Of a stretch of DNA of 64,000 bases, positions 7,860 to 35,358 are shown piece after piece. The position numbers were made by a program, and so were the translations under genes. The notes under the pieces are model-generated. The model was not told where the DNA came from, ran no database searches, and saw only the letters and a program-made list of their open reading frames with translations. The stretch is from assembly GCA_951406725.2 (NCBI GenBank), contig OX597815.1, forward strand, positions 90,954,001 through 91,018,000, written 5' to 3'. The stretch comes from Octopus vulgaris. Its lineage: Eukaryota. Each line of letters starts with the position of its first letter. Position 1 is the first letter of the stretch.

Positions 7860-8480
7860 AAGGCGGTGAACTGACAGAAACGTTAGCACGCCGGGCGAAC
7901 TGCTTAGCGGTATTTCGTCTGCCGCTACGTTTAGAGTTCAAAACGCCGAAGTCGACTTTATCTTTCCTCCTTTCGGGATAGATTAAATAAGTACCAGTTA
8001 CGCACTGGGGTCGATATAATCGACTTAATCCGTTTGTCTGCCCTTGTTTGTACCCTCTCTGTGTAGCCCCTTGTGGGCAGTAAAGAAATAGGTATTTCGC
8101 CTGCCGCTACGTTCTAAGTTGAAATTCCGCCGAGGTCGGCTTTGCTTTCATCCTTTCGGGGTCGATTAAATAAGTACCAGTAACGCACTGGGTCGATATA
8201 ATCGACTTAATCCGTTTGTCTGTCCTTGTTTGTTCCCTCAGTGTGTGTAGCACTTTGTGGGCAGTAAAGAAATAAGAATCGTTGGCATCTCTGGCACAGT
8301 GCTCAGCGGCATTTTGTCCATCTTTAGCTTCTGAGTTCAAATTCCGCCGAGGTCGACTTTACCTTTCATCCTTTCGGGGTCGATAAAATGAGCACCAGTT
8401 GAGTACTGAAGTCAATGAAATCGATTAATCCCTTCCCCCCGACCCTGCTCGCCTTGCGCCAAAGCTTACAATTAATATTC
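7860..8480 (+). mobile_element. SINE family A trimer: two Tx1-tailed units followed by an older ATT-type unit
   Basis: Junctions are TAAAGAAATA|GGTATTT at 8090/8091 and TAAAGAAATA|AGAATCG at 8274/8275. Confidence 0.9.
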
Positions 8481-8780
8481 ATTCGCACACACACGCACTC
8501 TTTTAAAAGCAAACCTCTTTAAAAAGTACAAATGAAAGAGAACCTATCTCAATGTTCAACTACTGCTCAGTTGTTACCCATGTCAAATATGCACTTCTTC
8601 GCTCAGAGGTCCGCAATTTTAATTAGGACCAAACCTTACAACAGATTTAAATCACTGAACTGGACACTTACCAATACTAATAAATTTGTGGTCTTGGATC
8701 CATGAAAATATCTTCTGACCTAAACAGTAGTTTAGCTTCAGTATCTTTTGTTTGAAATTATCCTCATTTAACTAACTTGG

Positions 8781-8808
8781 ACACACGCACGCACGCACAC
8801 ACACACAC

Positions 8809-8864
<56 letters not shown>

Positions 8865-8877
8865 ACTACACACACTA
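8781..8877. repeat. (CA)n microsatellite
   Basis: Read directly from the sequence. Confidence 0.95.
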
Positions 8878-9319
8878 CGCGTATGAATGAAATAAGTTCA
8901 AATAATAAACAAAAGTTGATTCAGTTGACTATACCCCTATCGGTTTTAGTACTTCCCGTTTACTTACAATAAAAGAAGAAAATGAAGAAAGCCTATAGCA
9001 CTGCAAAGCCTCACCATTTCATTCTTTCGTCGCCATCTCACAACTTGTTTTAGATTATAATTGTATAAGCATTACAAGACACCCTTTTACAATATTTGGG
9101 GGAAATGACTTCAGCATTTCAAAGTAATGGATCATTTATAAATGGTATATAATTCATAAAGCAAAGATTTCAGCGGGTATTCAAAAACAATGTAATGCAA
9201 CATTAAAATTTTTGTCGTATTTAAGCTATTTAAATTTTTAGTTTAAATTCTATTGATATCAACGTTGTCTGTCAACCTCGAGGATTTAATATATGAAGTA
9301 CTGTAAATAAAATATACCC

Positions 9320-9458
9320 AAATTCCGCAGAGGTTGACTTTGCTTTCCATCCTTTCAAGGTCGATAAAATAAGTATCAGTTGAGTACTGGGGTCTATGTA
9401 ATCGACTAACCAACTCACCCGAAACCGCTGGTCTTGTGCCAAAATTTAAAACCAATAT
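9320..9458 (+). mobile_element. SINE family A, 5'-truncated
   Basis: AATTCCGCAGAGGTTGACTTTGCTTTCCATCCTTTC..GTCGATAAAATAAG core plus tail. Confidence 0.8.
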
Positions 9459-10189
9459 AATATACCCAAATTATAGCATATGTGCCAATTTCAAAAATGA
9501 ATTATACAGTGTCTTTGATATTTTCTGCGTTGAACTGTTTATATTTTGACAGCAATTTGACGCAGTTGTAATTAATATGAGAAAAGTTAAACGAACAATA
9601 TTAACAACTGCCTATGTTACATGAACATTCTTCAGACATAAAGCCGATATTCAAACGTCTTTTGTGTCTCCTATTATATGTTCAAAGACACCTCAACTAT
9701 ACCTCTCTTTTATTTCTGATCAATTACGAACGTCACTTTAGTGTATATAATAACGTGTCTTATCATTCATTTTTAACATTGATGTATTGTTGGTCCATGA
9801 CTATAGAGTGCATTTATTTTTTTTAAAAAACATTTATTTTGATATATCATGTCTAATAAAGTTGTTTGTCATAAAATGTTGTAACAAAGTATATCTCATT
9901 GAATTTGCCAAATAGTAAAGATGAATCGAGTAGAAGAGAATGGACAACTGGTCGAATCGTAATGGTTATCAATCTGTCAGTTGAAGGATCGATACTTCGA
10001 ATCGCTGCACCTATGCATCTACGTGTGTATGGTAGACTTACGTAACTGACAACGCATAAGTACCTTAGATAACCTGAAACTACCTCTATAGACAACGACA
10101 ACATTCAACAGAGCAATTAAGGAGTCCTTTTAGTATTTAAATGATGTATACTTTTTTACTTTTTTACTTTGTGTGTGTATATGTATATA

Positions 10190-10233
<44 letters not shown>

Positions 10234-10304
10234 TGTATATATATGTATATAGATATATAGATATAGATATACATATAGATATAAATATTTGTACACACAT
10301 ACAT

Positions 10305-10350
<46 letters not shown>

Positions 10351-11467
10351 GGCCATCTTAAATTTCCTGAGCCCAGGAAGTTTATTAGGAGATTGGTGTC
10401 AGAGATAATGAATACAGTAAAGATGTGATGAATGCGGTGGTGGGGAAAATGGGAATTGTGAAGGACGAAGAAAGATACAAAACGCGCAATAATGCTGTGA
10501 AACTGCGAATACGCTCTGCATGTGCGATTTCGTTTGACTATATCTCTCGAAGAGGCGCTAACAGATGTCCCTATGGCTTTGTGTTTTCAGATCGCTTATT
10601 CACAGAAATGTTCAAACGAAACTGTTCCAGCTACAGCTAAGGCGTATTCGCGGGTTCATAGGGTTAAGAGACAACTGAAATTGGCAATTAACCGCTTCCT
10701 ATTCATACTGAAACGACTTTTGAGTCACCTTATACAATAGAAGGATATTTTACTATAATAGATCGTTGGAATTGAACTTAGAAAAATCATTGAACAAAAA
10801 TAATTTCCTCAATGGCTACATAAAAATAAAGTGACTAAAAGTGACGTATATATTTGTAGAATATAACACATTCATAATACACAGAGGTGAGTACTAGTAA
10901 AAAATTTGCGATTTACCATCTTAGCTGTTACTTCTTATTTGTTATTTATTCTTTATACCTCCTCTACCTCTAGCATAACGGTTTGCACCAAAAACACTTT
11001 GCTGTCAATAACTTAAACCTTGTATGACTAGTGCGTAATTCATGAGCGTCAAGATTTAATCAATGTCACTCCGTTGTTAAGGGAAATGATTCGGTCCAAG
11101 GTAGGTAGATATACAACATAGTGTTTTGTGGAACGGTGTCAGGGAAAATAACAATCATCAATAAAGCATTTTTATTTATTATATACATGACTGTATTGCC
11201 AAAGTTAATTTGGGTGGCAATTTGAAGTATCAAATTAAGACAAAATACGAACTGAATCACTCTGAATTGTTGCAGTTCACCAATGAAGGGATATACATAA
11301 TAATCGTTCAAACGATGCAACAACGAGGTTAACATAAGCTGTCGCTATCGATAATTACATAATGTTCTAGAATGGCATTTAAGACATTGGTCCGTAGAGA
11401 TATTGTAAAGATGTCTCTATATTTTATTTGAAGTTAACCACGTTGCAAAATATCAATTCAGCGCAGC

Positions 11468-11537
<70 letters not shown>
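11468..11537. repeat. (AAT)n microsatellite at the 5' junction of the R4/Dong fragment
   Basis: Perfect run. Confidence 0.97.
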
Positions 11538-11540
<3 letters not shown>

Positions 11541-12296
11541 GAAACGGAGGCTCTAATCTGTGCTGCCCAAGAGCAAGCATTAAGAACCAATTACATAAAA
11601 TACAGAATAGACAACACATCAGAAAGTGATAAGTGCAGAATTTGTAGACAAAATGATGAAACCCTATTGCATATTACCAGTCAATGTACACCATTAGCCC
11701 AGAAAGAATGTAAGAGATGTCGTAACAATATAGCAAGGATTGTCCATTGGACACTTTGCAATAAGTATGGACTTGACGGAGCAAAAAAATTGACCCGAAC
11801 AGAAACCAGACGTCATCCTCGAAAATGATAATATAAAAAAACTATGGGATTTTATGATTCAGTGCGACTATCAGATAGAGAATATGAAGCCAAACATAGT
11901 GTTAATTGAGAAAGAAAGCAAACGATGCTGGTTATAGCATGTCAAACTGACAATAAGGTATGCGATAACGGAGAAAGAAAAGTTGATAGATATAACAGGT
12001 TAGCTTGGGAGGTTAAGCAGTTGTTGTCGATGAAGAAGGTGGTAGTAATACCAATAATTGTTGGCTCACTGGGAACAGTGATTAAAAATCTTGAGAAGTA
12101 AATGCAACAAACAGGGGCTACAATAACGAAGGAGTACTTGCAGAAAACAGCACTGCTTGGAACCGCTCGAATACTCCGGAAGGTGCTCGAAAAATAAGGA
12201 GTGTTACCTTAGTTCACTGGCAGTGAACAGCTGGCACCATAGTACGTCTCCAGCGTTAGAGGCTGTGCAAAGACAATGAACAACAACAACAACAAC
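11538..12296 (+). mobile_element. 5'-truncated R4/Dong-type retrotransposon 3' end (zinc knuckle, restriction-like endonuclease, 3' UTR), decayed
   Basis: ETEALICAAQEQALRTNY; CRIC..ETLLHITSQC (CCHC); KPNIVLIEK; IPIIVGSLG; LQKTALLGTARILRKVLEK* (stop ~12197). The 3' UTR has the hairpin GTTCACT-GGC-AGTGAAC (12212-12228) and is followed by (AAC)n. Confidence 0.9.
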
Positions 12297-12936
12297 ACTC
12301 ATTAATTTTACAGTGCTACCGCTACAGTTGAGCGTTGAGTGTCATATAGAAATCAGGATACTAATTAACGGCTCTTTAAATATTGATGCACCATTCTGTT
12401 CACCATATCCTAGCAGTTCCTGGCTTAAACACATTAATTTTTAAAATGTCTTTAGAATTAGTATCAGGGTTAAATGATTTGCGTAACCAAATCCGAATAT
12501 ATTGATTTGTTTTAACTAACCACAAATGGCATTCATTTATAGGAAAATACACGTATATATTGCAACGCTTATACATTTCTTGAGTATACTAATCGCGAAA
12601 TTAAATAACATCTAATTAGATTCACACCACATAGCAAATTTACACGACCAATAACTTTCTCTTTATACAAAGAGGTTTGTGATTGTGGAGTTTAATGGTA
12701 CTTGTTAGTTTCATAATTTAAATTTGTAATCAAAATATGTTTACGCATTTGTGATGGTCTTGCTCCTGCTACTTTTGTTATTGCTTCTGCTGCTGCGGCT
12801 TCTGCTGCAGCTGCTGCTGCTTGCCTACACAATCTGGTCTGCATCGAAAACATCCTCCAGCAGCTGGGTAGAAAACAACCATTGGTTCACATATTCGTTG
12901 TTTCTGTTCAATGTCTACCCTGCTAATATTACATGA

Positions 12937-14190
12937 TTTTTATTACTCACAACGGGATATACACAGAAAGGGACAATACAAAACAAGATAAACATAAACT
13001 CGGGGAACTTAAAATACAAAAAGAAGATGAATTAAGACGAAAAAAATTTTAAAAACGAATGAAAATATGAAAAGATATAAATCAGGTGCAATGCCGACTC
13101 GACCCCCGAAGTCGAGTGGTTACATTTCGACAATTTTGTTTTCCTTTTTTCATAAATGAATTTCACAAATATTACATTTGAATTTTTCTTTTTAGTCTCT
13201 CATAATCCATTATGGTAGGTGGGCTTTCATGTAGCCGACACCATTTCACCAGTTTTACGTTCTTTGCGAAGCCCTCCATGAATTTGTCGTAACTCTCCCC
13301 AGGTATCAAAAGACCGCTATCACTTGAGTCAAAAGTGTCTCCCGCCAGCCTCACTCTCACCAGTCCCTTCATTTTCGCGATTCTTCTCTCTGCGTCCGCA
13401 CTTTTTGTATGTTATAAATGCTCACTTAAATTTATACGGTTCATTTTCTGTTTCTTCCTCTTGCATTTTCTTACTTTCAAAATTCTCCTTACCTTTTTGG
13501 TTTTCTTCTGAGTGTTCCCTTGTCTTCGATCTCTTTCTTCTTTTGGGGTTAATAACTCCCTCGCTCACCTCCTTTGATTCTTTCATTTCACTTTTCTTCT
13601 TGTCTTTATCTTTCTGGGTACAGTCCTTGTCTAATTTTTCAGCTTCTGTTTGTACTTTCTCCTGCATTTGCTCTTTTGCTCTTTTTTGTTCTTTTGTTCT
13701 TTTGTTCTTTTTCCGCTGTCTTTTCGCTTTGTGTGAATTCATATAAGATACACTCGGTCATTATGGGTTCTCTCACTCCGCATAGATAGCAATTATGTCT
13801 CTTCCCTCCACTACAACATTTAGCGTTATCTCGTTCTGAACCTCGATCTGGTAGGGGATTCTCTCGATGTCTTCGATTGCGGCGACAAGCCACATTCCGA
13901 CTCCAAACCCCCACCAGTTCAACGTATTTGTTTCACCAACTGGTCCCAGTTCAGGTTCGTCCTCTGTAGACGCCAGTACCGCTGCAACCAACCATTCCGC
14001 TTTTATTTCTGGTGGCACTCTCGAAATCCTAACTCTGACCCTGCTCATATTACAATAGCTTCTGTTACAGGCCAGGGATCTGTGTCCTTATCTCTCAACA
14101 TCTTAAGTATGTTCACTCTCAACTGTTTGTATATCGTACCCTCCCCCACGGAGATGCAGTTTTCGTAAATCTACTAGCTGACTACTTTTC
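12937..14190 (-). mobile_element. ORF1-only (HAL1-like) non-autonomous derivative of the Tx1-like lineage, frameshifted
   Basis: RISRVPPEIKAEWLVAAVL..NWWGFGV..LNVVVEGR..CYLC aligns with ORF1 of the 16.8-kb LINE (KIDLAPPELDMSWLVAAVL..NWLGMGV..LNVAVEGRKPKCFLC). The last ORF1-like piece stops at 13172. About 235 nt later comes the 3' motif TTGTCCCTTTCTGTGTATATCCCGTTGTGAGTAATAAAAA, with no ORF2 between. The 5' boundary is approximate. Confidence 0.7.
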
Positions 14191-14739
14191 TCAAAAAGCA
14201 TCAATCTGTGTAAATTCAAACTATCAAACCGAACAGGAACTCCATTGATATAATCAATTTCAAATTACTACTGTTGCTATCAGTACTTCCTCTCATTATC
14301 TGATTAAATTACATTTTTATCTGTTTTTCTTCACTATTTTCAATTATGGTAAGTGTAGATTTTTCTAGAGTATTCTAATAATAAAAAAAGGAAGGTATGA
14401 CAAATGAAGTGTATATATTTTTATATATAATACTCTAAAACCAACAATAAAAACTTCTGCCGATGTCTGTAACTCAAAAAAGGATTTAGCCCGTTTTTAA
14501 TACATCCGTTAAAAGAAAACAAAAAAAAAACGTCATTCATTTCGTGATACTTTTCTGACATTAATGCAATTTCTGTATAAAGTCTGTCTCCTCAGTAAAA
14601 TACAAAATATTGAAATCTTAAGTTGATTTACAAGAATATAGATAGTAATTATATCTCAGAAACTGCTAAAAACTTCTTGATAGATTATAATTATTATCCG
14701 GTACAATTCAAATATAGGATCTCATAATATTGTCATCTA

Positions 14740-14952
14740 TTGCATGGAGCTGGCAGAAACGTTAGCGCGCCGGGCGAAATGCTTAGCGGTATTTCATCTG
14801 TCTATACTTTCTGAGTTCAAATTCCGCCGAGGTTGACTTTGCCTTTCATCTTTTCGGGGTCGATAAATTAAGTACCAGTTGCGTACTGGGGTCGATCTAA
14901 TCAACTGGCCCCTTCCCCCAAAATTTCGGGCCTTGTTCCTAGAGTAGAAAGG
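14740..14952 (+). mobile_element. SINE family A with 14-bp TSD
   Basis: TSD AATATTGTCATCTA at 14726-14739 and 14953-14966. Confidence 0.9.
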
Positions 14953-16832: not shown

Positions 16833-17051
16833 CCTTCCGACGCCGATGGACGTACGTGAATCAGCTCCGTGAATTTGACACCAATTTCATTGGAAATCTA
16901 TTGATAGGTTTGAATATTTTTTAATATTTTTGTAGCCAAACCGACCGGCTTCTTGCGGAGCTCGTCGGTTGGGCGAAATTTTGCCCCATTCGGGGTGAAA
17001 TTACTGTCTATCCTTTTGAAATTGACATTTTTTGCACACACACATTACAAA

Positions 17052-18746
17052 ATGGCATTGAAACGAGCTGCTGGCTCTTCCCTCCTTCTTACAACACCCC
17101 CTCCACAAGAACAAAAAAAAATAACGTCACGGGTTACGAACAACCCATTTCAGGCCGTAAAAGGCAACAGAGCTCCTCCTTCCGAACCGGAGAGCACGCG
17201 CTCGGTTCAAAAGGAGGAGGAAGAAAAAACAATTACAAAAATCATCACAAACATTGACACGGAGAAAAAAGAAAAAACTTCCAACAATTTTGCTTCTGCT
17301 GCGAAGCAAATTTCGGAGGAAGTTAAGATAACTCTAGAAGATGTGAAAAGAGCGAAGGAGTTGTTGAGGAAGGATGGCAATGGCATCTTCCTCAATACTC
17401 CACAAGAGGTGATTGAAAGCACCAACAAGAAAACAATAATTTACAAAGTTTTCGACAGAAAACTAAAAAGAATAACAAATGCCACACCCCAACAGTTGGA
17501 GATAGCTCTAAAGCCCATTTGGGCCCAAAAGAGCTACGTAACCAAGGGGAAGCGTTTTGGAACCGTGGAGGTTCGCTTCCCAACAGAGGAGCTTGCAAGG
17601 GCGAACGCCATTTCGCCCTTGCAAACTGAGAATTTGTTACTAGTTCCGACCCACCTCGGGCGAAGAGTAACAAAAATAAAAATCGACCTCGCCCCCCCTG
17701 AGCTAGATATGTCATGGCTGGTGGCAGCTGTCCTCTATGATATAGAGGACACTACCACCATTCTAGATGTCAGGAGAGTGAGGGCGAAAAACTGGTTGGG
17801 GATGGGAGTGCTGCTTCTTGCGCAAATTCAGCAAGACAATATAAGTAAAGTCCCTGATTTCGTAAGTTTGCCGGACGGCACCAGGCTAAACGTTGCTGTG
17901 GAGGGGCGAAAGCCAAAATGTTTTCTCTGCAGCAGCGAAAGCCACTTAAAGAGGGACTGTCCCATTCACAAAAAGAGGATGGAGGCTTTCAGCAAGAGGC
18001 AGCAGCAACAACAACAACAACAACAACAACAACACAAGCAACAACAACAGAAACAACAAAAACAGCAAGAAACACCAAAGGCTGCCACACCACCAACACC
18101 ATCACCAACACCAGCACCAAGACGAACAACACCACCTCCAACAACAACAACCACCACCAAACCAACACCGACAACCACCACCAAACCAACACCGACACCA
18201 GTACCGACAGCAGCGACATCAACAGTAACAGGAGCAGCGGCACCACCGATACCGGCGGAACCAAAAACTTTTCGTCCTGCTACTGAAGCAGACCCCTCAA
18301 CCATTCCTTTGCCGGATGAAGAGATCTCGGATTGTGCGAGCTCTGATTCCAACAAAGGAGAATGGAACATAGTGCCTCTAAAAAAGAAAAGGAGGAAAAA
18401 ACAAAAAGATTTACAGGGGAAGCACGAACAAATAGTACTTCCCAACATCAACAACAACATCAACAACAACACACACTCACAACAACAAACAACAACAACA
18501 ACACTTTCGACACCACTACTGCCACTACCACAGACACAAACAAACACAGACACATTTACAGACACGATTACAGCAGTGAATACAAGAAACCAGGAACTGG
18601 TTGAGTATTTGAAAAACAAAACAAGCACAAACATTACAGATTTCATAATACCTACACACAACACACCACCAGCACACATTCTCACAATAAAAATAAACAA
18701 AACAGTTTACAACGAAATAAAACAAATATTCCCTAAGGATCGTTAG
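17052..18746 (+). CDS. LINE ORF1p (gag-like, zinc knuckle), 564 aa from first ATG
   Basis: Uninterrupted frame (the track starts at TTG 16953; the first ATG is 17052). Contains CFLCSSESHLKRDC (CX2CX4HX4C), poly-Q, a Pro/Thr linker and basic KKKRRKK. Confidence 0.9.
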   Translation: MALKRAAGSSLLLTTPPPQEQKKITSRVTNNPFQAVKGNRAPPSEPESTRSVQKEEEEKTITKIITNIDTEKKEKTSNNFASAAKQISEEVKITLEDVKRAKELLRKDGNGIFLNTPQEVIESTNKKTIIYKVFDRKLKRITNATPQQLEIALKPIWAQKSYVTKGKRFGTVEVRFPTEELARANAISPLQTENLLLVPTHLGRRVTKIKIDLAPPELDMSWLVAAVLYDIEDTTTILDVRRVRAKNWLGMGVLLLAQIQQDNISKVPDFVSLPDGTRLNVAVEGRKPKCFLCSSESHLKRDCPIHKKRMEAFSKRQQQQQQQQQQQHKQQQQKQQKQQETPKAATPPTPSPTPAPRRTTPPPTTTTTTKPTPTTTTKPTPTPVPTAATSTVTGAAAPPIPAEPKTFRPATEADPSTIPLPDEEISDCASSDSNKGEWNIVPLKKKRRKKQKDLQGKHEQIVLPNINNNINNNTHSQQQTTTTTLSTPLLPLPQTQTNTDTFTDTITAVNTRNQELVEYLKNKTSTNITDFIIPTHNTPPAHILTIKINKTVYNEIKQIFPKDR

Positions 18747-18880
18747 GGAAAAGTTTCTCTCAGAAACTTTACAAAAATATTATTGAAGCACCCGTGCAAA
18801 AGCACAAGGGAGCCACCCCCACCACCAACAACAGTAAGTAGAGCCTTTTTTCTCCTTTTTTTCCCCCTAACTTTTGAAAC

Positions 18881-21800
18881 ATGGCAAATCTTAGAACCGG
18901 TTGCTTGAATGTGAGAGGCCTCGGGTCACCTTGGAAACAGGGTCACCTGTTAAACGACCTGAGGTTTCATGATGTGGATGTAGCAGCCATCAGTGAAACC
19001 AGGCTCTCCGACCCGCAGGAACTCGCAGCCCTTTTCGGCGGATACGAGATATTTCTATCTCCGTGTCGGCCGGGAGCGGGCGGTGGTGGTACTGCGGTGT
19101 TGTTTCGGAAGGGCCTGGACCTGAAAATAAGGACAGTCTTCTTGGATCCGGAAGGTAAGTTGGTGGTCCTCGACGTCGACGGTAGTGACGGCGGTGCTTT
19201 CAGACTGCTGGCTGCCTACGCTCCGACAGGAGCAGGGCAGTCGGATTATTTCAAACGTCTGGAAGTTTTCCTGGGAACGTCACGCACTCTAGTACTAGTT
19301 GGGGATTGGAACGCTGTCTTAGACGAACGTTTCGATCGGGTGGGCAGGGGAGCGTCTGATAGGAGAGGGGGAGGGTGCAAGAGCCTCGCCAACCTACTCG
19401 GCCGCTTTCAGCTGTCCGACAGGTTTCGACTAGACAACCCGAATGTGCCAATGTGGACTTGGACAAACCGCATCGGGTCGTCTAGATCGTACTTAGATAG
19501 AGTGTTTTGTAGGCCAGCGGATAAGGACAGCGTAGGGTGTCCACAATTCCACCTAGTCGAATATACGGACCACAAATTAGTGATCTGTACGGTCGACTTA
19601 GATAGGCTACATAGACAGGGACCCGGCTACTGGAAGCTGAACGCGTCGTTAACGGCGTGCAAAGCTTACAGAGACCGGATTAGTTTACTAGTTAAGCGGG
19701 CGCTCACGGGGGCAATCATCAACAACAACTGGTGGTTTGCCCTCAAGAGAGCAATTAGAGTAGAGTCGATTAGGTATAGTAAGACTCTAGCTATTGAACG
19801 TAGGAAGAGAGAGCGGGATTTAGTTAAGAAACTAGACGAGGCTCTTGACACTGGCATCGCGACCGACGTGTTGGCGGCAAGGTTGGCCCTCGACCAACAC
19901 TTCGACGCCAAACACGAAGGCTGCGTTGTCAGAGCTAAGGCACGTTCGCTAAGCGGGGAGGGGACTAGAGCCGCTCGATGGGCCCGCGTGGCGGAGGCGA
20001 AGCGAGGCAACAGAGCAACCATTCGGTCTTTGGTGGACCAGAACGGGCGCGAGGTTACCCAACCGAAGCAGATGTGTACGGTGCTTCAGCGGCACTTTGC
20101 TCAACTGTTTGGGACGAGCGGTGGAACGGACACCAACGGTACAGACTTCGGTGTGTACCTGGACGGACTGCCGCAACTCTCGACAGCGAGGCAGAGTGCT
20201 GCGAAGGACCGATATCTGCCTGGGAAGTACAGGAAGCGATGAAGAGTTGCACGAGAGGTAGATCGCCGGGTTTGGATGGTCTGCCCTACGAGCTTTACTT
20301 TTCAATGCCAGACTTGTTTGCGGACCTGTTGGCAAACGTCTACTGCAACTGGCAGCAAAACGGGAGAATTCCTGCTTTTGTCTGTCGAGGGGTGGTGGCT
20401 TTGCTAAAGAAGGACCCAAACAAGGGGGACGTTATAGGGAATTTCCGGCCCATCACTCTGCTCAATGCAGAGTTGAAGATTTTGGCCAAGGTGCTAGCCA
20501 AGAGATTGGCGCTTGTCGTGGACAAGCTGGTCGGCGAGACGCAGACATGCGCCGTGCCGACCAGGTCGATACACGACAACCTCCATCTCATGCGCTACAT
20601 CATAGAGAGGGTGGGTAACGACGCTGGCGCGGGTGGGGCTTTGATCAACTTGGATCAGAGTAAAGCCTTCGATAGGGTCGACCATCGGTACCTGGCAGCT
20701 GTCCTCAGGGCAGCCGGCTTCGGTCCAGTCTTCCGCGGGTGGATCGCTGCTTTATACAGCAACATCTGCTCGGTGATACGGGTGAACGGTCACCTTTCGG
20801 AACCGTTCGACATCTCGCGTTCGGTCCGCCAAGGATGCCCTCTCTCCTCCCTCTTGTACATTTTGACTCTCGAGCCATTACTGCGCAAGTTGGAGGCTTT
20901 GAGGGGTATCCCGCGCGATCTAGGAGGCGGAAACAGCGTGTCTGCTTATGCCGACGACGTCACCGTGGTGGTGTCGAGCCACAGGCACATTGGCCTGATT
21001 GGCGAGACGCTAAACCAGTACGAAGCGGTGACAGGGGCAAAGATTAACGCGGAAAAGTCTGTGGGCTTGCAACTGGGCACCTGGAGAGGCAAGCCCATGC
21101 CGTCCAACAGCGTCGTAGGGCGCTGGACAGACGGACCCGTTAAACTGCTCGGGGTCTGGTTCGGTCCGGACCTCCAGGTGGATAAGAACTGGGAAGAGGT
21201 GACGAGCAGGGTGGCACGTCTCACCCAGAAATGGGCCGAGAGGAAGCTGTCCCTGAAAGGTCGAGCGGAGGTGGCGAATGCGTACATCGCATCCGTCATC
21301 TATTACCGCTTGACCGTCGTCCCTTGTCCCGACCGCTGGTTGGCCAAGCTGGTACGTCTGCTCTTCGACTTTTTGTGGAAGGGTCAGGTGCCACTGGTCA
21401 GGCGATCCATCTGCTGTCAACGACCGCTGAACGGAGGCCTTGGAATGCCGTGGTTACTGTTGCGCAGACATGCGCTCAGGCTGCGGCATCTCAAGCGCTT
21501 CCTAGACGGTGAACAGGTGTGGTCGTCTTTTGTCAGACGCGATTTTCCGCAGCTCGTCTCTTTGACGGAACTGCAGACCTGGATCAAACGTAGACCGAGA
21601 AAGGGCGCTTGGCACCTCGAGTGCCGTCAAGCCCTCTCCGCCCTCCGCCAGGCGGGCAATGCGGTCGGTTACAGCTCCACTCTAGCGTTCTATAGAGGGT
21701 TAGTGGAGGAAAAATGCGACGACGTTCTCGGGGAAACTCTAGGCGTTGAAGATGACGAACTGTGCGGTCTGTTCGGGAGGACTTTCGGGCCGGGGCCGAT

Positions 21801-22314
21801 GGATAATTTCCAGAGGTCTCTCGCTTGGCAGTGCTACCGAGGGGCTCTGCCTGTTCGAGATAAACTCTACCGGCACGGAAGTGCCGTCAGCCGGGCCTGC
21901 CCGAGGTGTTGCCAGGACGACGAAACCGTCCTGCACGCACTCGTCCAGTGCCCGAGTATTGCTGAAATATGGGTTTATGTCGAACAGCTACTGTCACGTG
22001 TAGGACGGATCCGACTATCGGCCGAATCCATAGTGAAGATTGCCCCGCCGACCTCCTTTAACAAGGAGGGCGAGGCCGTTTTCTTGTGCCTAGTGGCTGT
22101 GGCGAAAGAGGTCGTGTGGTGGACTCGTTTGAAAGGGCTAAAGACAGACACTTTCCTCTTTGGTCAAGGCCTCATCAACTTTTTCAAGTTTCACTTGAAA
22201 AGGAAGATGAGGTTAGAGAGGAAAGTGCTGTCCGATAGCAAGTTTTATGAAAGGTGGGTGAATTGTGCGAGACTGGCCTGTATAAATGGACCAGTTCTCA
22301 GGTTTCGCCTGTGA
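18881..22314 (+). pseudogene. LINE ORF2p (APE endonuclease, reverse transcriptase, CCHC); one -1 frameshift near 20180; ~1144 aa if repaired
   Basis: APE motifs LNVRGL, ISET, AYAP, GDWN, YLDRVF, TDH and GPGYWKLN. RT motifs SPGLDGLP, NFRPITLLN, DQSKAFD, RQGCPLS and YADD. C-terminal CPRC..ETVLHALVQC. The frames join as LPQLS/DSEAECCEGPI. Confidence 0.92.
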
Positions 22315-22595
22315 TTTCAAAGAAAAAGGTAATGTAAAAGGAGAAGAAAGGGGACTCTCTACACCCCCTTTTTTTGACCAGGCTCCCGTTGGCTTTTGTA
22401 GGGTTTTTTCCACCAGGAACCTTTCGAGACGTCTCCCCCTTTTGGGAGTTTTTCATTGTTGAATTTTATAAGTTGTTATAAAGATTTTTACTCGATGTTT
22501 TTAAAAAACGGCAAAACCCTTTGTAACCTTTCGTCCTGTCTTGTCCCTTTATGTAATCATGCGTGTCAGCCCTTGTGGCCAATAAAAAAGAATTG

Positions 22596-22669: not shown

Positions 22670-24245
22670 TTTCTCTTTATCACCGGTTTTGAAGCCAATA
22701 TTTTTCTCACTCGCCGCAGGTACTCTCTTTTTGTATTTTCCTTCATGTTGTGGTGTTTGATTCTATCTACCTCAAGTATTCCCAGGTATTGAGAATTGAG
22801 GTTGAATTGTCTTCCTCATTTCACCACTTGGCAACCATATGCCTTCTGTCCTGACAAGCTTTCCTCGTCTCATCCCAATTGTAGCACATTTTGAGAGTCC
22901 AAACTCCATCTTGATATCATCGAAGAAAATCTGCATAAACTGAACTAGGCTGTCCAGTTCTGCCTCAGTGTTTGTGAATAGTTTCAGATTGTCCATGGAT
23001 AACAAGTAGTTTAGTTTCCCTTACCTCTTCTCAGATCATACCCCAACTTTGTTTTCTATAGTATTTCACTCAAGGAGATTATTCCCAGCACGAATATCAG
23101 TGGGGATATACTCTCCCCTTGGAAGATTCCTCTCTTGATTTTCACCTCTCCTAATACTTGCTCCCGTGTTGTCAATTCCGTTCTCCAGTATTTCATGCTA
23201 TTCCATATAAGGCTTCTCATATACTCTGCTACTCCATACATTTCCATTGTTCTTATTATCCATGAGTATGGTATATTTCTCCATCTTTTCCAGCTCTTTT
23301 CACCTACGCGAACATCCCCAGTTATGGCCATATCTATGATTTTAGTTTCCTTTTTTCCTTTATCTAGCACAAAAATGTCTCGTCTCGGAGCATCAACAAG
23401 GAAATCACATTGGATTGTCTCACAAGATCTTATATTCATTGTTCCCAGCGACACCTTCTGGTTCATATTTGAACCACTTTTATCTCTTCCCAGAACGTAC
23501 TTTCACACTGTCCCCAGTTAACAAACTTAGCCACGTTATCATACCTCCTTTTATATTGCATTTGAACCTGCTTGCTACACTCACAACATGCTAGGCTGTT
23601 TGGTTTTTTTCTACCACACATCTTGCAAGGGGGCGATTCACTGCTCTTATTTCTTTGGAACTTGATATAACTGGCGCTGTATGTCAATGCTTCAGTGCAT
23701 CCTTTCAGGTCACCTTTCCTAAGCCACCACCAAGTGTGGTATTGCCTATGCATTGTTTTCATTTACCAGTTGGTTATTCTTTGTTTTTCATCTTTCTTAA
23801 ATGTTTTTGAGTATGTCACATTTTCAGTAGGTATCGTGTTGCTCTTTCTAGCAGCGGCAAGCAAGGGTTCACTCTGCTATTTGATGTACCAACCCAGATT
23901 ATTCATCTCGTGGACAACACAGATCTTGCATCCTATGAGGCCTCTTCCTCCCTCTGTCCTAGGCATATAGAGTCTATCGATATAGTCTCCTTGCTGATTG
24001 TCATCACTTTCCTGGTTTTCCTATCCATTTCCTCTAGCTCGTTCTTTGTCCACCTAACAACACCAACGACGTATCGCATTAAAGAAACGGACCGTGCAGT
24101 CATTGCCCTAATCTTTTTATTTCCATTGAGTCTACTTCGTATGATTACTCTCGTTATTCGTTGATATGCTCGCCTTAAGCTTTCCTTTATCTATTTCCTT
24201 CATTTTGTCATACTCCAAAATACCCAGATATTTATAACCATCAAT
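22670..24245 (-). mobile_element. Decayed R4/Dong-type retrotransposon fragments in permuted order
   Basis: The order is GYKYLGILE (~24230), WWWLRKGDLK, CKMC, YKRRYDNVA, RRDIFVLDK..IIDMAI..EKMEKY (~23275). It then returns to RT: PYSWI..IKRGIFQGESISPLIF..MDNLKLF..MEFGLSKCA..EYLRRVRKIL. Confidence 0.85.
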
Positions 24246-24762: not shown

Positions 24763-25345
24763 CAGCGGCGAGCTGGCAGAAACGTTGGCACGCCGGACGA
24801 AATGCTTAACAGTCTGCCGCTACGTTATGAGTTCAAATTCCGCCAAGGTTGACTTTGCCTTTCATCCTTTCGGGGCCGATAAATTAAGTACCAGTTACGC
24901 ACTGGGGTCGATGCAATCGACTTAATACGTTTGTCTGTCCTTGTTTGTCTCCTCTGTGTTTAGCCCCGTGTGGGTAGTAAAGAAATAGGTATTTAGTCTG
25001 CCGTTACGTTCTGAGTTCAAATTCCGCCAAGGTTGACTTTGCCTTTGATCCTTTCGGGGTCGATTAAATAAGTACCCGTTACGCACTGGGGTCGATGTAA
25101 TCAACTTAATCCGTTTGTCTGTCCTTGTTTGTCCTCTCTGTGTTTAGCCACTTGTGGATAATAAAGAAATAGGTATATCTTCTGTCGCTATGTTCTGAGT
25201 CCGAATTCCGCCGAGGTCGACTTTGCCGTTTATCATCAAGGTCGATAAATTAGGTACCAGTTGAGTACTGGGGTTGATGTGATAGACTAATCCCTCCCAC
25301 CAAATTTGAGGTCTTGTGCTTCCAGTAGAAAAGACTATTATTATT
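24763..25345 (+). mobile_element. SINE family A trimer (two Tx1-tailed units plus one ATT-type unit)
   Basis: Junctions AAAGAAATA|GGTAT at 24987/24988 and 25171/25172. Confidence 0.9.
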
Positions 25346-25905: not shown

Positions 25906-25990
<85 letters not shown>

Positions 25991-27671: not shown

Positions 27672-27721
<50 letters not shown>

Positions 27722-27814
27722 GATAGGTAGGTAGGTAGGTAGATAGGTAGGTAGGTATGTAGGTAGGTAGGTAGGTAGGTAGGTAGGTAGGTATGTAGGT
27801 AGGTAGGTAGGTAG

Positions 27815-27876
<62 letters not shown>

Positions 27877-27920
27877 CAGATAGATAGGTAGGTAGGTAGG
27901 TAGGTAGGTAGATAGATAGA
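27672..27920. repeat. Alternating (GATA)n/(GGTA)n tetranucleotide array
   Basis: Read directly from the sequence. Confidence 0.96.
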
Positions 27921-27925
27921 TATAC

Positions 27926-27956
<31 letters not shown>

Positions 27957-28667
27957 ATTACACATACATGCACACATACACATACACCCACAAACATGCA
28001 TATTTACCTAACAGAGACTATCTGAGACATGTTTCTGATTCGTATATAGGTATCTCCGTACGCATACACAGATATACCTAAGCTGCATCAGACTATCAAA
28101 GACATTTTGTGTGTGTGTGTATGTGTGTGTGTGTGTGTGTGTGCGTGTGTGTGTGCGTGCGTGTTGGTAGAGAATATAGATATGATATTGATTCGTATTT
28201 TAGTTAGACTGAATATTCCTCCAAAGTACAAAGCTGGTTAACCAGTACAACAATATTTTTAACTCCATAGAAATATCAAGTGAATAATTGGATTTTCCCT
28301 TTTGAAGCACAGCAGCCATCCTTGAATGCAATTCTGAGTGTACGTTACAGTCTATTCTGCGATCTATCTCTAGAACATCAAAATATATCCCATTGCCTTG
28401 TACAGTTAATTAAACTCGGTGGAAATTTTGAAAAGTGATTAAAGAAGTTTTCTTTCTTCTCAGGTTTTACAATATTTTGCTAAAGTTATGTTGAGATGAC
28501 TGAGACAGGAAGAAGTGTAACTGCATGTATTTGCAGTACGAAAATATTTTGTTGTTTTACCGTTCATTCCGTTTTCAGTCTTTCGAAATCAGTAAATATC
28601 AGTGATCAGATAAAATTATGTATTTTGCTGTGTATTCTTGTTAACATTCTAACACACGTGTTCTTTA

Positions 28668-28710
<43 letters not shown>

Positions 28711-28729
28711 CATTATTATTGTTATTATC

Positions 28730-28788
<59 letters not shown>
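28668..28788. repeat. (ATT)n microsatellite
   Basis: Read directly from the sequence. Confidence 0.96.
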
Positions 28789-28789
<1 letters not shown>

Positions 28790-29360
28790 TTGTACTTGCT
28801 TAAAATATTTATACCAATACATAGTTATAACCATTGGAGATATTTTCCATCGAATTATTCTCAATATATTCTTAGCACAACAGGCAAAATTCTTAGCGGT
28901 ATTTCGTCCGTCTTTACGTTCTGAATTGATTTTCCGAGGATGTTGACTTTGCTTTTCATCCTTTCGAAGGTCGATCAAATAAGTACCAGTTTAACACTGG
29001 GGTTGATGCAATTTCAATTATTTCAATTAACGCTTACAATATATTCTTAGGTAGGTCAAACAACTTTCTAAAAAAACAGTAAGGGCTTTGCTTGATCAAA
29101 ACAGTACTATCAGTATTCCAGTATTCATTTAAAATATTGAAGGATTCTCGATATATCTGAACTCAAGGTCGTAGAAACAGCAAACATCTGTTGAGCTGGT
29201 ACATGAATTTATCTCGATTATAAGCAGCAAAGAAAAAGATACCGAAATTGAGTCGTCGGCTTAACATGAATGCCGGTAAGTTATACCATTATACCACGTG
29301 TTAACTTCACTCTTTTGCGCTTTTAAGCGGAGTTCCCGGTTTGAAGATAACTCTCCCTTC

Positions 29361-29778
29361 GGATCTTTTCGGTTTGAACGGCAGTTTTTTACATAATTTC
29401 TAGGTAACTAAAAAATTTTAAACTTCGTATACTGGTAGAATGTGTTTATAAAACATCTTTTTCTCTTGGCTTTATTGAGAAAATTCTATAGTTTGTAAGA
29501 TATTTGGTGTTATTTTTTCTTCAATTTCTGCAATTTCAACCAATCACTGACCTCTATTGAAGTAAAAAAAAATCTGTGCCGTATGAATATGTCCTTCGTT
29601 TAAGAAACAGATTGGGTTTATTTACATTTGTGAAGAAAAAAAGATACCCTTCCCCCCACCCCTAATCCTAGCCCTAAAACAGATTGAAATGCAATAGATC
29701 GATACTAGAATCATAATTATGGGTGACAATTTCATATGACACCGCTAGAAAAAACTGCCGTTCAAACCGAAAAGATCC
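29361..29778. mobile_element. MITE, 418 bp, with perfect 30-bp TIRs and 8-bp TSD (Merlin-like or hAT)
   Basis: TIR GGATCTTTTCGGTTTGAACGGCAGTTTTTT at 29361-29390 and its reverse complement at 29749-29778. TSD CTCCCTTC at 29353-29360 and 29779-29786. Confidence 0.93.
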
Positions 29779-30466
29779 CTCCCTTCGTCACCCAATCCCA
29801 GAAGTATGCGATGGCCATAGGTAATGCACTTCATCCTCTGAGTCATGAAAAAATCTAATAACTACTGACAAGTTGTTCACTAAATAGTAAATAAAATATA
29901 ATGGATTGGAACTAGAAAGTAACAGCATGTAGATTTAAAAGCCATAGTTAGAGATTCAATAAAACGGCAATTGTAACCAATGAATCTATAACAGATTGGC
30001 TTTATAGTACTTCTTACATAAGGAAAAAAATGTGCATGTGTAATGAAATGAATGGGTATCGCCGGCTCACTAGATTGCAGTTCAAGTCTGGTATTTACTC
30101 TAACTATTCCTAGTGAAATGAAAGATAAAACTAATCCTGACGAGATTTTGATCTCAAAATAATAGTAGTCAAATTCAAATGAATAATAAATGTTAAATTT
30201 AACACCTAAAAACTGAAATATTGCAAAAGATAATATATAATAACGTGTCACGCGATTCTAAGCTCAATGCCTCTTATTACTCAATATGACAAACATTAAA
30301 ATAACATCCTTGTGGTTATTTACCGTAATAATATGTAGTGATTAGCATAATCGGCAAAACATAGCATGTCAGCATTTAGTTTAAGTTCCGTCGTTTCGTT
30401 TGGCGATCAAAATCCTTCTAACGACGATAAATTAAGTACTAATCAGCTATACCGCTCCCTTAAATA

Positions 30467-30885
30467 TATATTTCTGTACAACCCACAAGGGGCTAAAAAC
30501 AGAGGGGACAAACAAGGACAGACAAACGGATTAAATCGATTACATCGACCCCAGTGCGTAACTGGTACATAATTTATCGACCCCGAAAGGATGAAAGGCA
30601 AAGTCGGCCTCGGCGGAATTTGAACTCAGCACGCAGCGGCGGACAAAATACCTATTTCTTTACTACCCACAAGGGGCTAAATACAGAGAGGACAAACAAG
30701 GACAGACAAACGGATTAAGTCGATTACATCGACCCCAGTGCGTAACTGGTCCATAATTTATCGACCCCGAAAGGATGAAAGGCAAAGTCGACCTCGGCGA
30801 AATTTGAACTCAGAACGTAACGGCAGACGAAATACGGCTACGCATTTCGCCCGACGTGCTAACGTTTCTGCCAGCTCGCCGTCTT
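30467..30885 (-). mobile_element. SINE family A dimer (two Tx1-tailed units) with 14-bp TSD
   Basis: TSD CGCTCCCTTAAATA at 30453-30466 and 30886-30899. Internal junction at 30652/30653. Confidence 0.92.
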
Positions 30886-32159
30886 CGCTCCCTTAAATAA
30901 ATGTGACCTTGTATCAATGGAAGAGATTTTAATTTAAATGTGGTGGGTGGCAGAATTAGCAGTGAGACAGAGAAACTGAGTTACCAGTTACACCGCTGTA
31001 CATTACGAGTTCAAGTGCCAAAATTTGTCTTTTGCCAATCAGGTGGGGATAACATATATACTGTCTCATTGCTTTGACAAAATCAGAAATCAATATTGCA
31101 CTGTTGTTATTGCGCTATAAACTTTTTTTATTAATAGATCTATAACAGAGATCTATAAGTTGGTGACTAAGCGAATGAATACTCTGATAACTGACTCAGA
31201 AATAGAAAGACTGTATTTCTGAATATCTGGACGGAAATTCTTATTCCGCTATTAAAGCTGTTGTCGTAATGATGGTTGTGGAACTTTGCTGTTTTTTATG
31301 ACACTTGGCAGACTAAATGTTGTCGGCGTTCTTGTTAAGGTACTAGGTACTCTTATTGTTGTTGAGGGTATTAGTAATACAGTTGAGTATTGAAATCCTT
31401 GGTACTACAGTTGCTGGATATTTAGAGGTTGTAGTTCTCGTTATTTGAGGTGTTTGATAATGTTGATATATTCTATGAAATGGAGGATTACAGATAAGAT
31501 CCTCTCTACTTAAAGCATAAGACCTGAAAGCTTGAGGACAGAAGTTGAACTATTATACATACCCCACTACTTAACAGGTTCTTATTTTATCGACCAGTAT
31601 GGAGGAGGAACGCATCAGGCATGCTCACTATATGTCCGAGCCACACATACACACACACATACACACAATCACAATAATACATCTGTAAGAGTTAGCACTT
31701 CCTTCTCTAAGCCTAGATTCGAACTGGAACATGGTTGAGTATGCTCCGTGTGGTCAGAGGTTTAGTCTTCTTTTTCTATTAATTAGACGGTGTATGTGGC
31801 TGGCTACTGATGTAGAATTGCTATGCTCTTTATATTTAAACGAGTTTAAATGTGAACAATATCTCTGTTTAAAATTAGTGGTTGATCCAACATAGGAGCT
31901 ATTGGAGTAATTTAATATGTTGTGAACTGTGCATTGGTATACTATATTGAATCTTCTGCATTGGGCTTGCAGCGCTCAGTCGGTTCCAAATCTGCAGTTG
32001 CAGCCATCTGTTCTAGGATGGTTAATTGGAGTGAGAGATGAGGTAGTTCTAATAGCCGACGACTGTGCGTGTGTGTGTGCGTATCTGTGTGTGTGTACAT
32101 GCACACATTATGTGGGCGATATTTTTCATACGAGACGTTCCAATTGTATCTGATCCTTC

Positions 32160-32940
32160 AAGTACTTCTCCCTAGTGTCATCCAGAGATCTTGGAGTAAT
32201 TATTGATAACAATCTAAGCTGGAGTTCCCACGCAAACAGCAAGGTTAACTTGACCCGCAAGATGTGCTCCTGGAATCTGAGAACTTTCCGATCTAGAGAT
32301 ATCTACACCACCATCCTTCTCTACTTTTGCCCGATCCCACCTTGAATACTGTTGCCCAGTGTGCACCCCCGCCCCATACGAAGCAAGTCATAATGAAAGT
32401 AGGAAAACTCCAGAGGTCAATAACAAGAAAGATAGACGGTATGAGAGGCATTGATTATTGGGGTCGACAAAAAAAATTCAATTTCTATTCTCTCCAATGC
32501 TGCCGGAAGCGTTACATCATTTGTGTTATGTGGAAAATATTCCATCAATATTGCAAAAATAATGTTGGCATCAGTTTTAAAATCCATCCAAGGCTTGGTC
32601 CCCGTGCTATATCCGCCCACTACAAAAATCGAACACGGCACACATTGTAACATTACGTCACAATTACTTTACCTCCATCGATCCAGCTCTTTTTAATACC
32701 ATACCAAAATTTGTCAAAACGGAAACGGATCCCATATAATTCAAATGTTCACTGGACAAATTTCTTCAAAACATCCTGGGCCAACTTCCTACACCCAGAT
32801 ATGTTTCCAACAATAATAACTCTTTGCTAGAGTGGGCTATGATGCTCCATATATAACTAAAAGACTTCACCGGGTGGTGCTATATAGTTAGACATGGCCT
32901 GGGCCTATACTGACCGAAACATATCAAAGTTAAAGTTACA
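32160..32940 (+). mobile_element. CR1-group LINE 3' fragment, decayed
   Basis: RDLGVIIDNNLSWSSH; RSHLEYCCPV; LQRSITRKIDGMRGIDYW; YSLQ..RYII..WKI; FKCSLDKFL; NNSLLEW. Short tandem tail AAAGTTAAAGTT. Confidence 0.85.
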
Positions 32941-33074
32941 TATGTTTACTAGATTGCTGACATTTATTAATGGGTTTTTCTCATTGTGATATGCCAATTT
33001 CTGTCATTAATAGAACTGTCGGCATTTATGATACGGGTATGCTGGTGACATAATGACATTCACTACCAGCTAGC

Positions 33075-33297
33075 ACGCGGTGAGCTGGCAGAATCGTTAC
33101 TGCACTGGACAAAATACGTAGCGGCATTTCTGCCGATTTTACGTTCTGAGTTTAAATGCCACCGAGGTCGACTTTTCTGAGCGTATATCTGGTGTCTATA
33201 AAAATAAGTACTGGTTGATAACTGGGGGTCGATGTAAATCGACTTAACCCCTTCTCAAAATCGCTGACCGGGTACCAAAATTTGAAACCAATATATT
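33075..33297 (+). mobile_element. SINE family A, diverged
   Basis: GGTGAGCTGGCAGAATCGTTAC head, core and tail. Confidence 0.8.
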
Positions 33298-33946
33298 AGC
33301 TAGCTACTCGCAATTCGCTTTTGATATATGTAATAAAATTTTCGGAGATATTAATATTTTGGAATTACAATTATACTACCTCATACTTTAGACATTTTAA
33401 TGATTCCACTTTGTAAAATTTTCCAGAAACACTTTCTTTTTCTTCTTTTCTTCTGTTTTGTAAAATCAGGCTACACGGGTATTGCTTAGCTATAGCAACA
33501 AAGAATAAGTGCGTGAACATTTTCCCTAAATGCATCAGCACCACATAATCATTAGCATAATTTGGAATGAGTTATCTTCGTTAATGTTTTTCTGTTGTCA
33601 TTTACCGTTTGCCTTACGGAAAACTCTGAAGTGTACCATGGAGTCGATTCTCATCCGACTGATCTCGCCGAATTGTTGTTTAATTACACTTATTTTATAT
33701 CGCAGTTCTTGAACAATAGACTCTTTGATTGCGAGTAACCAACAGATCAATCCTTGGTTCACTGCATTTATGACAGCGAGAATGACATAGTGATGTCTGT
33801 ATGTCAATGTAGAACAAAGATCATACGAGACCGTGTTTGATAAGTTCCATGGTTTTCTGCTTTCTCCGTCGTATATACATCCTCCTCTGACACACATCGA
33901 CGAAAGATACACCTACCTCTCTACCTAACTATACACACACACACAT

Positions 33947-33981
<35 letters not shown>

Positions 33982-34179
33982 CAAATATACATCATGTGTT
34001 GGTGTGTGTGCGCGCGCGCCAGTGTGCGCATTTGTGAGTGTTTTGTGTGAGAATGGTGCTGTACTGGTAGAACAACTAAAGCGTAAGAAATAATACCTTA
34101 TAATATTAGTTCCGACTCTTTACACGCTCAAGGTAAGTCTCACCAAGGGCAGCTTATCATCTTCGCTTGAAGTAACCGG

Positions 34180-34700
34180 AGACATTTTCGCACGTGGCGT
34201 GTATATGTGAATGGTGGTAAACATAGTAGAACGGAAGATGATAGTAATAGAAGTGGAAAAGAGGTTTAGTTTATTTGAAGTGTAAATGGGGTTGGGAATT
34301 GGTCAAGGATGCGTGTATAGTCTAAAACTAAATTATGCAAAGATTTAAAGCTTGTCAAATATTCGCTCTCTACCGGAAATAGCAGTATGCGGTTGATTGT
34401 GAGCACGTAGATGTATTATAGATGTATTTGAAGGAATGAGAGAGAAAAATTTGAACCAGAGTAACTAGAAGTTTATTATTGATGTCCCAGTGACAGTGAT
34501 GAGTGATCGGGACAGAGGAATCTACATGTTTGCAGTTACTATCTTTCAAACTGAAGTTTATGACAAGAAAGTAATCTGGGCACATGAGAGAGACTATGGT
34601 AAGGACTGGATTATTTGTATTAATTGTGTCTTCGGCGGGAACGTGATGTAGGGTTTACGAGTAAAAGCTGGGGAGTGAAGTCTAGTTGGGGTTCGATTTC
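34180..34700 (+). mobile_element. Possible highly decayed LINE RT remnant
   Basis: Weak motifs LFEV*MGLGIGQGCV (~34270-34316) and YAVD (~34386). Confidence 0.3.
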
Positions 34701-34811
34701 ACGAAGTTTGGCGAAGAAGAGGTAAATTATTCAGCAACTTTTAAAATTTTAGTACATTAGGAAGCATCACGGTGTGACATGAGGTAATTTCCTGCGTGTG
34801 GTTTGAATATT

Positions 34812-35358
34812 CTTTTCTATTCTAGGTACAAGGCCCGAAATTTGGGGGATGAAGGGCAATGTGGACATCGGTGGAATTTGAACTTAGAACGTAAAGACAG
34901 ATGAAATACCTATTCATTTACTACCCACAAGGGGCTAAACACAGAAAGGACAAACAAAGACAGACAAACGGATTAAGTCGATTACATCGACCCCAGTGCG
35001 AAAATGGTACTTAATTTATCGACCCCGAAAGGATAAAAGGCAAAGTCGACCTCGGCGGAATTTGAATTCAGAACGTAACGGCAGACGAAATAAGGCTACG
35101 CATTTCACCCGGCGTGCTAACGTTTCTTATTTCGTTACTGCCCACAAGGGGCTATACACAGAGGGGACAAACAAGGACAGACAAACGGATTAAGTCGATT
35201 ACATCGACCCCAGTGCGTAACTGGTACTTAATTTATCGACCCCGAAAGGATGAAAGGCAAAGTTGACCTTGGTGGAACTTGAACACAGAACGTAGCGCCA
35301 GACGAAATACCGCTAAGCATTTGGTCCGGCGTGCTAACGTTTCTGCTAGCTCGTCGCC
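34812..35358 (-). mobile_element. SINE family A trimer with imperfect ~22-bp TSD
   Basis: Junctions at 35127/35128 (tail|AGAAACG) and 34910/34911 (tail|GGTATTT). Flanks are TTCCTGCGTGTGGTTTGAATATT (34789-34811) and TTCCTGCCGTGGTTTGAATATT (35359-35380). Confidence 0.9.

Follow-up and report, generated by a model that had tools for sequence, protein, structure and literature searches.

Results

SINE multimers in the window

The window analysed here is a stretch of 64,000 nucleotides (nt) of the Octopus vulgaris genome (assembly GCA_951406725.2, contig OX597815.1, positions 90,954,001 to 91,018,000 of the forward strand). It carries four multimers of a short interspersed element (SINE) in which successive units restart at one of two positions in the SINE head. 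Units bearing a variant tail are called V below, and positions are numbered on the 233-nt SINE unit, the reference V copy being that at 30653..30885 on the minus strand. An earlier note on this stretch had described eight variant units and seven junctions at two head sites, and all were recovered: the V units are spread over the four multimers, and the junctions among them restart with GGTAT at 8091, 24988, 25172, 30652 and 34910 (unit position 50) or with AGAAWCG at 8275 and 35127 (unit position 17). The multimers are made up as follows, with strand in brackets.

7841..7857 (+): 5' copy of a 17-nt target duplication around the whole trimer; the 3' copy, 8472-8488, has one mismatch
7860..8090 (+): full-length first V unit, A- and B-box-like motifs intact
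8091..8274 (+): V unit restarting at position 50 (GGTAT)
8275..8478 (+): older host SINE remainder restarting at position 17 (AGAATCG), with 79% identity to V where the two overlap
about 24763..24987 (+): first V unit, its own GGTATTT site removed by a 7-nt deletion
24988..25171 (+): V unit restarting at position 50
25172..25345 (+): older ATT-tailed host remainder restarting at position 50
30653..30885 (-): full-length first V unit
30469..30652 (-): V unit restarting at position 50; a 13-nt duplication encloses the dimer
35128..35360 (-): first V unit
34911..35127 (-): V unit restarting at position 17 (AGAAACG)
34812..34910 (-): H1-type host remainder restarting at position 50, with an internal deletion; a 14-nt duplication encloses the whole trimer

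At the 7860, 30467 and 34812 loci a single duplication thus encloses the entire array. The 15-mer proposed as diagnostic of the variant, CCAGTTACGCACTGG, is exact in just 5/8 units. A general repeat scan of the window was dominated by microsatellites.

The V SINE is short, non-coding and of high copy number, with target duplications of variable length (13-26 nt). By their match to the box consensus, RNA polymerase III (Pol III) A- and B-box-like elements are predicted in its head: TGGCAGAAACG at positions 13-23, which contains junction position 17, as had been proposed for the AGAAW site, and GTTCAAATTCC at positions 77-87, so that junction position 50 falls between the two. A T4 terminator is absent from the consensus of both V and H1. 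Neither ARAGORN (0 genes in the window) nor Rfam (0 matches on 30400-31000) confirmed that the head derives from a tRNA. Octopus tRNA-derived SINEs were reportedly described by Ohshima and Okada in 1994, one under the name OK. The V family may be one of OK, OR1 and OR2, which like it are abundant in octopus, or it may be the SINE reported with the octopus genome; the names OR1 and OR2 appear in the parts seen of PMC4824008 and PMC4758252.

The junctions across the genome

The exact 24-nt tail has 68,216 copies in the genome, of which 33,759 continue with GGTAT (reversed-pattern control, 0), 3,861 with GGTAT followed by a non-T and 2,809 with AGAA. Exact junctions from the tail to position 50 number 27,165 and those to position 17 number 2,383, the two patterns being unequal in stringency. 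Among the first 100 tails listed, 60 were classed as restarting in a SINE, 56 of them at position 50, and two more looked like SINE by eye. For an unselected sample we took 90 tiles of 10 kb (900 kb) regardless of content. Their 79 tail matches, less five near a tile edge and five lacking a SINE body (four LINE ends and one deleted SINE), left 69, of which 39 restart in another SINE (25 at position 50 and 10 at position 17) and 30, about 43%, land outside SINEs. A histogram of 3' flanks, suggested earlier as a check, therefore divides: 35/69 tile tails stop at the two head sites, and the share outside SINEs is large. Likewise, confinement of the variant to multimers holds in the window and fails in the tiles, where 20/37 head-bearing V elements are chained and the others are monomers.

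The junction pattern is not due to chance and holds genome-wide. Tile tails followed by GGTAT lie inside SINEs in 26 cases and outside in 6, while head-like sites make up less than 10% of YGGTAT sites; the enrichment of GGTAT in heads is about 50-fold in the tiles, a part of it contributed by local duplication. Scaled up from 69 tails and 39 restarts in 0.9 Mb, the totals would be about 215,000 for V tails and 120,000 for self-junctions.

Insertion into existing heads

Direct insertion into existing genomic SINE heads, as the note had supposed, does occur. A pattern in which a new head comes after a target duplication occurs 166 times in the genome, in some cases as head minisatellites. In 16 of 20 fetched double heads, read by eye, the order is target, full-length V, target again, with a duplication of 14-20 nt that starts at position 50. 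Of the 20, 12 have a host head upstream and 8 have a V tail there (again by eye), and the latter show that existing junctions are reused as targets. Head-only minisatellites with a period of about 64-67 nt were observed at double-head junctions at G000:C10:17996023-17996501 and G000:C5:87874181-87875487.

Alleles in other organisms were compared over 29800-36600, using contigs of four runs. A contig of organism E links 30467 directly to 30901, an empty site for the entire V dimer at 30469-30885, whereas contigs of organisms B and D run into its head. At the trimer at 34812-35360, an organism E contig starts 35 nt inside the head (35326-35360), so that a SINE head is present there. The expected contrast of filled and empty alleles was thus obtained in part, with an empty dimer site and a head at the trimer; an uninterrupted host SINE was not read. 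Read depth at the tail end is about 100-fold lower in organism E than in B, a hint only, as depth is not copy number.

Age and relatedness of the units

Terminal units fall in several older subfamilies. Divergence from consensus is 0.100 for terminal H1 units (n=44), 0.124 for H1 monomers and 0.042-0.045 for V units, so that the last units are, as had been noticed in the window, about twice as diverged as V. The 44 terminal H1 units form no clades (0/946 pairs above 0.93 identity), and they share private alleles no more often than monomers do. Being older, drawn from several subfamilies and without clades, the terminal units are evidence against a fixed dimer or trimer master, which the note had listed as an alternative. 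Among V units, those in last place are slightly older than those in first place (0.048 vs 0.036, p=0.025), and positions 51-61 are better conserved in hit hosts than in controls (0.052 vs 0.094, p=0.027). One SINE insertion with identical flanks was seen twice, 10.3 kb apart (L053 and L054), and is likely a segmental duplication or an assembly duplicate.

Neighbouring V units behave differently in short and long arrays. Where two V units adjoin, 43/52 pairs share fewer than two private alleles and are mostly unrelated. In arrays of at least three V units, 17/38 later neighbour pairs share at least two private alleles (null 1.6%) and 15/38 are at least 96% identical (null 0.5%). Neighbour likeness of the kind seen in SINE satellites is therefore found in many arrays of at least three units and not in most dimers; long arrays are partly local duplications.

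As to whose head survives, the head allele 63C is carried by 25/34 composites, 77/98 V monomers and 4/24 H1 monomers. The host share of the surviving head is estimated at 0.20 (bootstrap interval -0.04 to 0.42), with no 5'-to-3' gradient along the head. The head is thus mostly that of the incoming copy and not that of the host. Retention of the host head was rejected; alleles shared between first unit and terminal host at positions 51-70 show no excess (8 observed, 7.1 expected), and an earlier signal of V-H sharing, confounded by truncated V units, was set aside.

A LINE family at the same base

A long interspersed element (LINE) with two open reading frames (ORFs) lies between the first two multimers.

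16833..22595 (+): Tx1-like LINE; ORF1 about 17052-18743, ORF2 18878-22314 with one frameshift; endonuclease, reverse transcriptase (RT) and zf-RVT

Its ORF2 matches PF03372, PF00078 and PF13966; the named homologues are from argonaut and cuttlefish, the nearest solved structure is L1 ORF2p, and the top Atlas cluster bears the automatic name 'Transposon TX1 ... 149 kDa protein' (score 0.97). It is a putative member of the Tx1 clade. The family is very young, with many copies at 99-100% protein identity and many frames of 1145 amino acids (aa), and lies in (ATT)n; head-to-tail tandems are spaced about 5,870 bp (5.9 kb), and tandem or young copies are found at G000:C4:93.80-93.83 Mb, on C47 and on C50. 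Although its tail is related to the SINE tail, we rejected it as the partner of V: the 29 readable of 30 close copies all end in (ATT)n. A pattern of the window LINE's type of 3' end with the SINE terminal letters had 0 matches in the genome.

A LINE-type tail pattern at position 50 gave 37 matches; of the 30 fetched, 29 are SINE tails altered by mutation and the other, L236, is a decayed LINE that ends at position 50, with 52-56% aa identity to the window LINE over parts of ORF2. We call its family LINE-S. Among the best 40 non-query relatives of L236 (of 150 listed), the 3' end is followed by SINE from position 50/51 in 37 and by other DNA in one, and is unreadable in two. LINE-S is therefore a family specific for SINE position 50/51. 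Frames of 1101-1134 aa are still open in some copies. At position 50 the letter goes with the LINE-S subfamily (C in 27/28, G in 9/9), pointing to a nick between positions 50 and 51 and to a last letter encoded by the element. About 60 nt of the LINE-S tail can be aligned with V, and its last letters, GTGGGCAATAAAGAAAT, are those of C-type V. LINE-S is the likely partner of the V SINE, judged from tail and target.

A sister family, LINE-B (copies L151, L177, L199, L247, L300 and L317), lies in (TATC)n, and its tail also aligns with the SINE tail (score 69, shuffle maximum 45). It was set aside as sole partner, its copies ending in (TATC)n-type runs. Three related LINE families are thus seen with three targets, namely (ATT)n, (TATC)n and the SINE head.

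Other remnants lie elsewhere in the window. A decayed sister LINE fragment at 42050-43562 (-) is 73% identical to the window LINE and ends short of the 3' end. The AT-rich segment 41300-42000 gives the impression, on the minus strand, of a mitochondrial-type or Penelope-like remnant, and the frames at 39909-40979 and 41617-42024 read like a decayed RT/endonuclease element. Two further fragments, at 11409-11825 and 23015-23518, may derive from RTE-type LINE proteins, which they resemble.

Targets outside SINEs and the tail allele

Insertions outside SINEs have duplications of about 13-26 nt (59/109 resolved in one set), which mostly start with G, GG, GGTA, GGTAT(TT), AGAA or TA repeats. The base at -1 is a pyrimidine in 23/28. 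This preference stands alone: the TRGC pre-site consensus of the earlier note did not carry over, as no TRG was found at -4 to -2.

The site used tracks the tail variant of the element. Counted by eye, the T tail allele is present at 95/100 listed GGTAT junctions and the C allele at 79/100 listed AGAA junctions. Outside SINEs, T-type tails are followed by a G start in 15/19 and by AGA in 0/19, and C-type tails by AGA in 6/10 and by G in 0/10 (p=2e-5). Certain C-type tails run on as AGAAATAAGAA, and certain T-type tails repeat GAAATA ahead of GGTAT. Where the duplication copies differ within GGTAT (17 loci, some registers doubtful), the motif is in the 3' copy 13 times and in the 5' copy once. 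Since the 3' copy carries the motif and the tail allele predicts the target, we infer that the RNA letters past the tail pair with the nicked DNA. The endonuclease is thus probably not the only determinant of the site. A site-preferring endonuclease, the note's proposal, accordingly survives in the specificity of LINE-S for 50/51 and probably needs this second influence beside it. The opposite extreme, in which GGTAT is purely RNA-encoded with no specific endonuclease, was dropped, as most 5' duplication copies already have GGTAT and LINE-S is site-specific.

About 11 of the first 100 tails (for example L153, L166, L177, L182, L188, L192, L304 and L320) have flanks of a third kind, (TA)n or starting with TATA, which the two head sites do not explain.

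Discussion

From this comparison of sequences we consider it likely that the LINE-S machinery copies the young V SINE into the heads of older SINEs and so builds chains in place. Direct support comes from the shared tail, the site specificity of the LINE, the head insertions with target duplications, the old and diverse terminal units and the incoming-type heads; organism E, empty at the dimer and with a head at 35326-35360, supports it further. The first step would be a nick by the LINE endonuclease in a short site of the YR|GWAW type, with the cut probably falling between positions 50 and 51. Given that both SINE consensus sequences lack a T4 terminator, the V RNA would run past its tail, and the letters that follow would pair with the nicked DNA, a GGUAU... 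extension picking position 50 and an AAGAA... extension position 17, with weaker matches outside SINEs. Upstream of the nick the host head is homologous to the 5' end of the incoming SINE, so the cDNA would usually anneal there by its end and overwrite that head; what would remain is a single head with its promoter intact and a new target. Local duplication would then lengthen some of the long arrays.

Several observations weigh against this account. The overwriting of the host head is a step that we infer; a plain heteroduplex predicts about half host alleles, where the estimate is 0.20. Double heads are rare among composites (3/59 with a non-V terminal unit, 1/54 with a V end), which agrees with the mostly seamless 5' joins of the earlier note. 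In V..H composites the first unit is slightly more diverged over its whole length than V monomers are (0.053 vs 0.040, p=0.004). The age of target duplications did not discriminate V..H1 composites, H1 monomers and V-ended elements, in which duplications were detected in 12/33, 10/23 and 66/132 (p=0.18, 0.78). The LINE-B tail is just as similar to V as the LINE-S tail, so that assignment of the partner to LINE-S rests on the shared target; no LINE turned up at position 17, where none was looked for. In the other organisms an uninterrupted host SINE allele was not directly seen in 29800-36600, and the organism E head at 35326-35360 could belong to an older composite. Finally, equally incoming-type and gradient-free heads are what copying of whole chains predicts.

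That last route, in which self-insertion founded a limited number of source loci and read-through RNAs of these multimers then gave rise to most chains as whole copies, seems unlikely to us, though less so than the other two alternatives. It would account for the incoming-type heads, for the one duplication that encloses whole multimers and for the site in organism E that is empty for the entire dimer, and the lack of a T4 terminator in V and H1 is in keeping with read-through. H1 is also over-represented as terminal unit (9/23 H1 vs 6/72 older copies in the tiles, p=0.001). On the other hand, the 946 pairs of terminal H1 units contain no sibling pair, though hundreds of evenly used sources would still fit; the chains end in several host subfamilies; LINE-S itself sits almost exclusively in genomic heads; and organism E has a SINE head at 35326-35360.

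It is more doubtful still, indeed highly improbable, that each chain arose in one event, by switching of the RT from an old-type SINE RNA onto a V RNA where the two have the letters GGTAT or AGAA in common. Such switching would give incoming-type heads, diverse terminal units and a single flanking duplication, and it has precedents, in the parts seen of the two papers, in the template jumping of R2 proteins in vitro (PMC11371274) and in a proposal for the exchange of SINE modules (PMC4758252). It requires, however, the transcription and mobilisation of many old, diverged copies, and leaves unexplained the double heads, LINE-S at the same base and the same letters at non-SINE targets. Least probable of all is that the chains arose mainly through local tandem duplication of a SINE segment of 184 nt or 217 nt, by unequal crossover or slippage: the sibling pairs of the longer arrays speak for it as a secondary contributor, and as the main route it is contradicted by the unrelated two-V neighbours, by the joining of V to differing host subfamilies and by its inability to fix the same junction base genome-wide.

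If young V copies are inserted into older heads as we propose, a more tentative possibility is that the LINE and the SINE form a self-renewing loop, in which the SINE would be both passenger and target of one LINE, each insertion would rebuild promoter and target as it overwrites the host head, and the RNA letters beyond the tail would re-aim insertion between positions 50 and 17 with the enzyme unchanged. Such a loop, if true, would be recorded in the order of 100,000 chained junctions. A site-specific retrotransposon normally needs the host, or some unrelated transposon, to make its target. In this case the element's own passenger likely supplies it, and the number of targets would no longer be limiting. 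The process also provides a way for dispersed SINEs to become tandem arrays, and it affects repeat annotation, because chains inflate lists of SINE families. Its scale, together with sister LINEs having other targets, provides a natural data set on the parts played by endonuclease and RNA-DNA pairing in target choice, a question relevant to RNA-templated gene insertion.

Comparison with known systems

Our literature search found no description of a SINE or LINE targeting this SINE head; the original papers on Tx1 and octopus SINEs and the Repbase and Dfam collections were outside its scope. A 2026 octopus repeat annotation (PMC13282606) reports active L1-Tx1 and SINE families, with no mention of such targeting in the parts seen. 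The statements below on other systems likewise refer to the parts seen of the papers cited.

Chained SINEs are known elsewhere. In the clam Scapharca broughtonii, TSD1-(SINE)n-TSD1 arrays have a headed first unit, later units with the head truncated at one position, and one duplication (PMC11481361). Their first and inner tails are truncated, they make up about 3% of copies and unequal recombination was suggested; the octopus V elements, in contrast, have full tails, are chained in over half of cases and share their base with a partner LINE. SINE-derived satellites of squamates and the Dip/B1 multimers of jerboas are also frequent tandems, but consist of internal duplications or full-length tandems, with no fixed site within the head described (PMC10702118).

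For the mechanism, R2 provides an analogy only, being of another clade, directed at 28S rDNA and studied with engineered homologies (PMC11371274). Both pairing steps proposed here nevertheless have precedent in it: the 3' tail of the template pairs with the nicked target, and 5' junctions are mainly of the 'anneal' type and sometimes of the duplicated 'join' type. Sequence-specific Tx1 families include Tx1L and Tx1D of Xenopus, Keno (U2) and the microsatellite-directed Kibi and Koshi (PMC4494074). The octopus sister LINEs in (ATT)n and (TATC)n resemble them in specificity, whereas no SINE is among the targets named there.

The closest known system is that of the crocodilian Tx1-Mar LINEs and SINEU-3 (Kojima 2015, PMC4494074), where a Tx1-type LINE and its passenger SINE have a common target inside a multicopy mobile element, the DNA transposon Mariner-N4_AMi, and tandem SINEs are ascribed to sequential insertion. 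There the target is a separate transposon and the tandems sandwich a duplication; in octopus the target is the passenger's own head, the joins are mostly seamless and the target would be recreated. The octopus system thus likely works in the manner of Tx1-Mar and SINEU-3, with the head of the passenger itself as the target.

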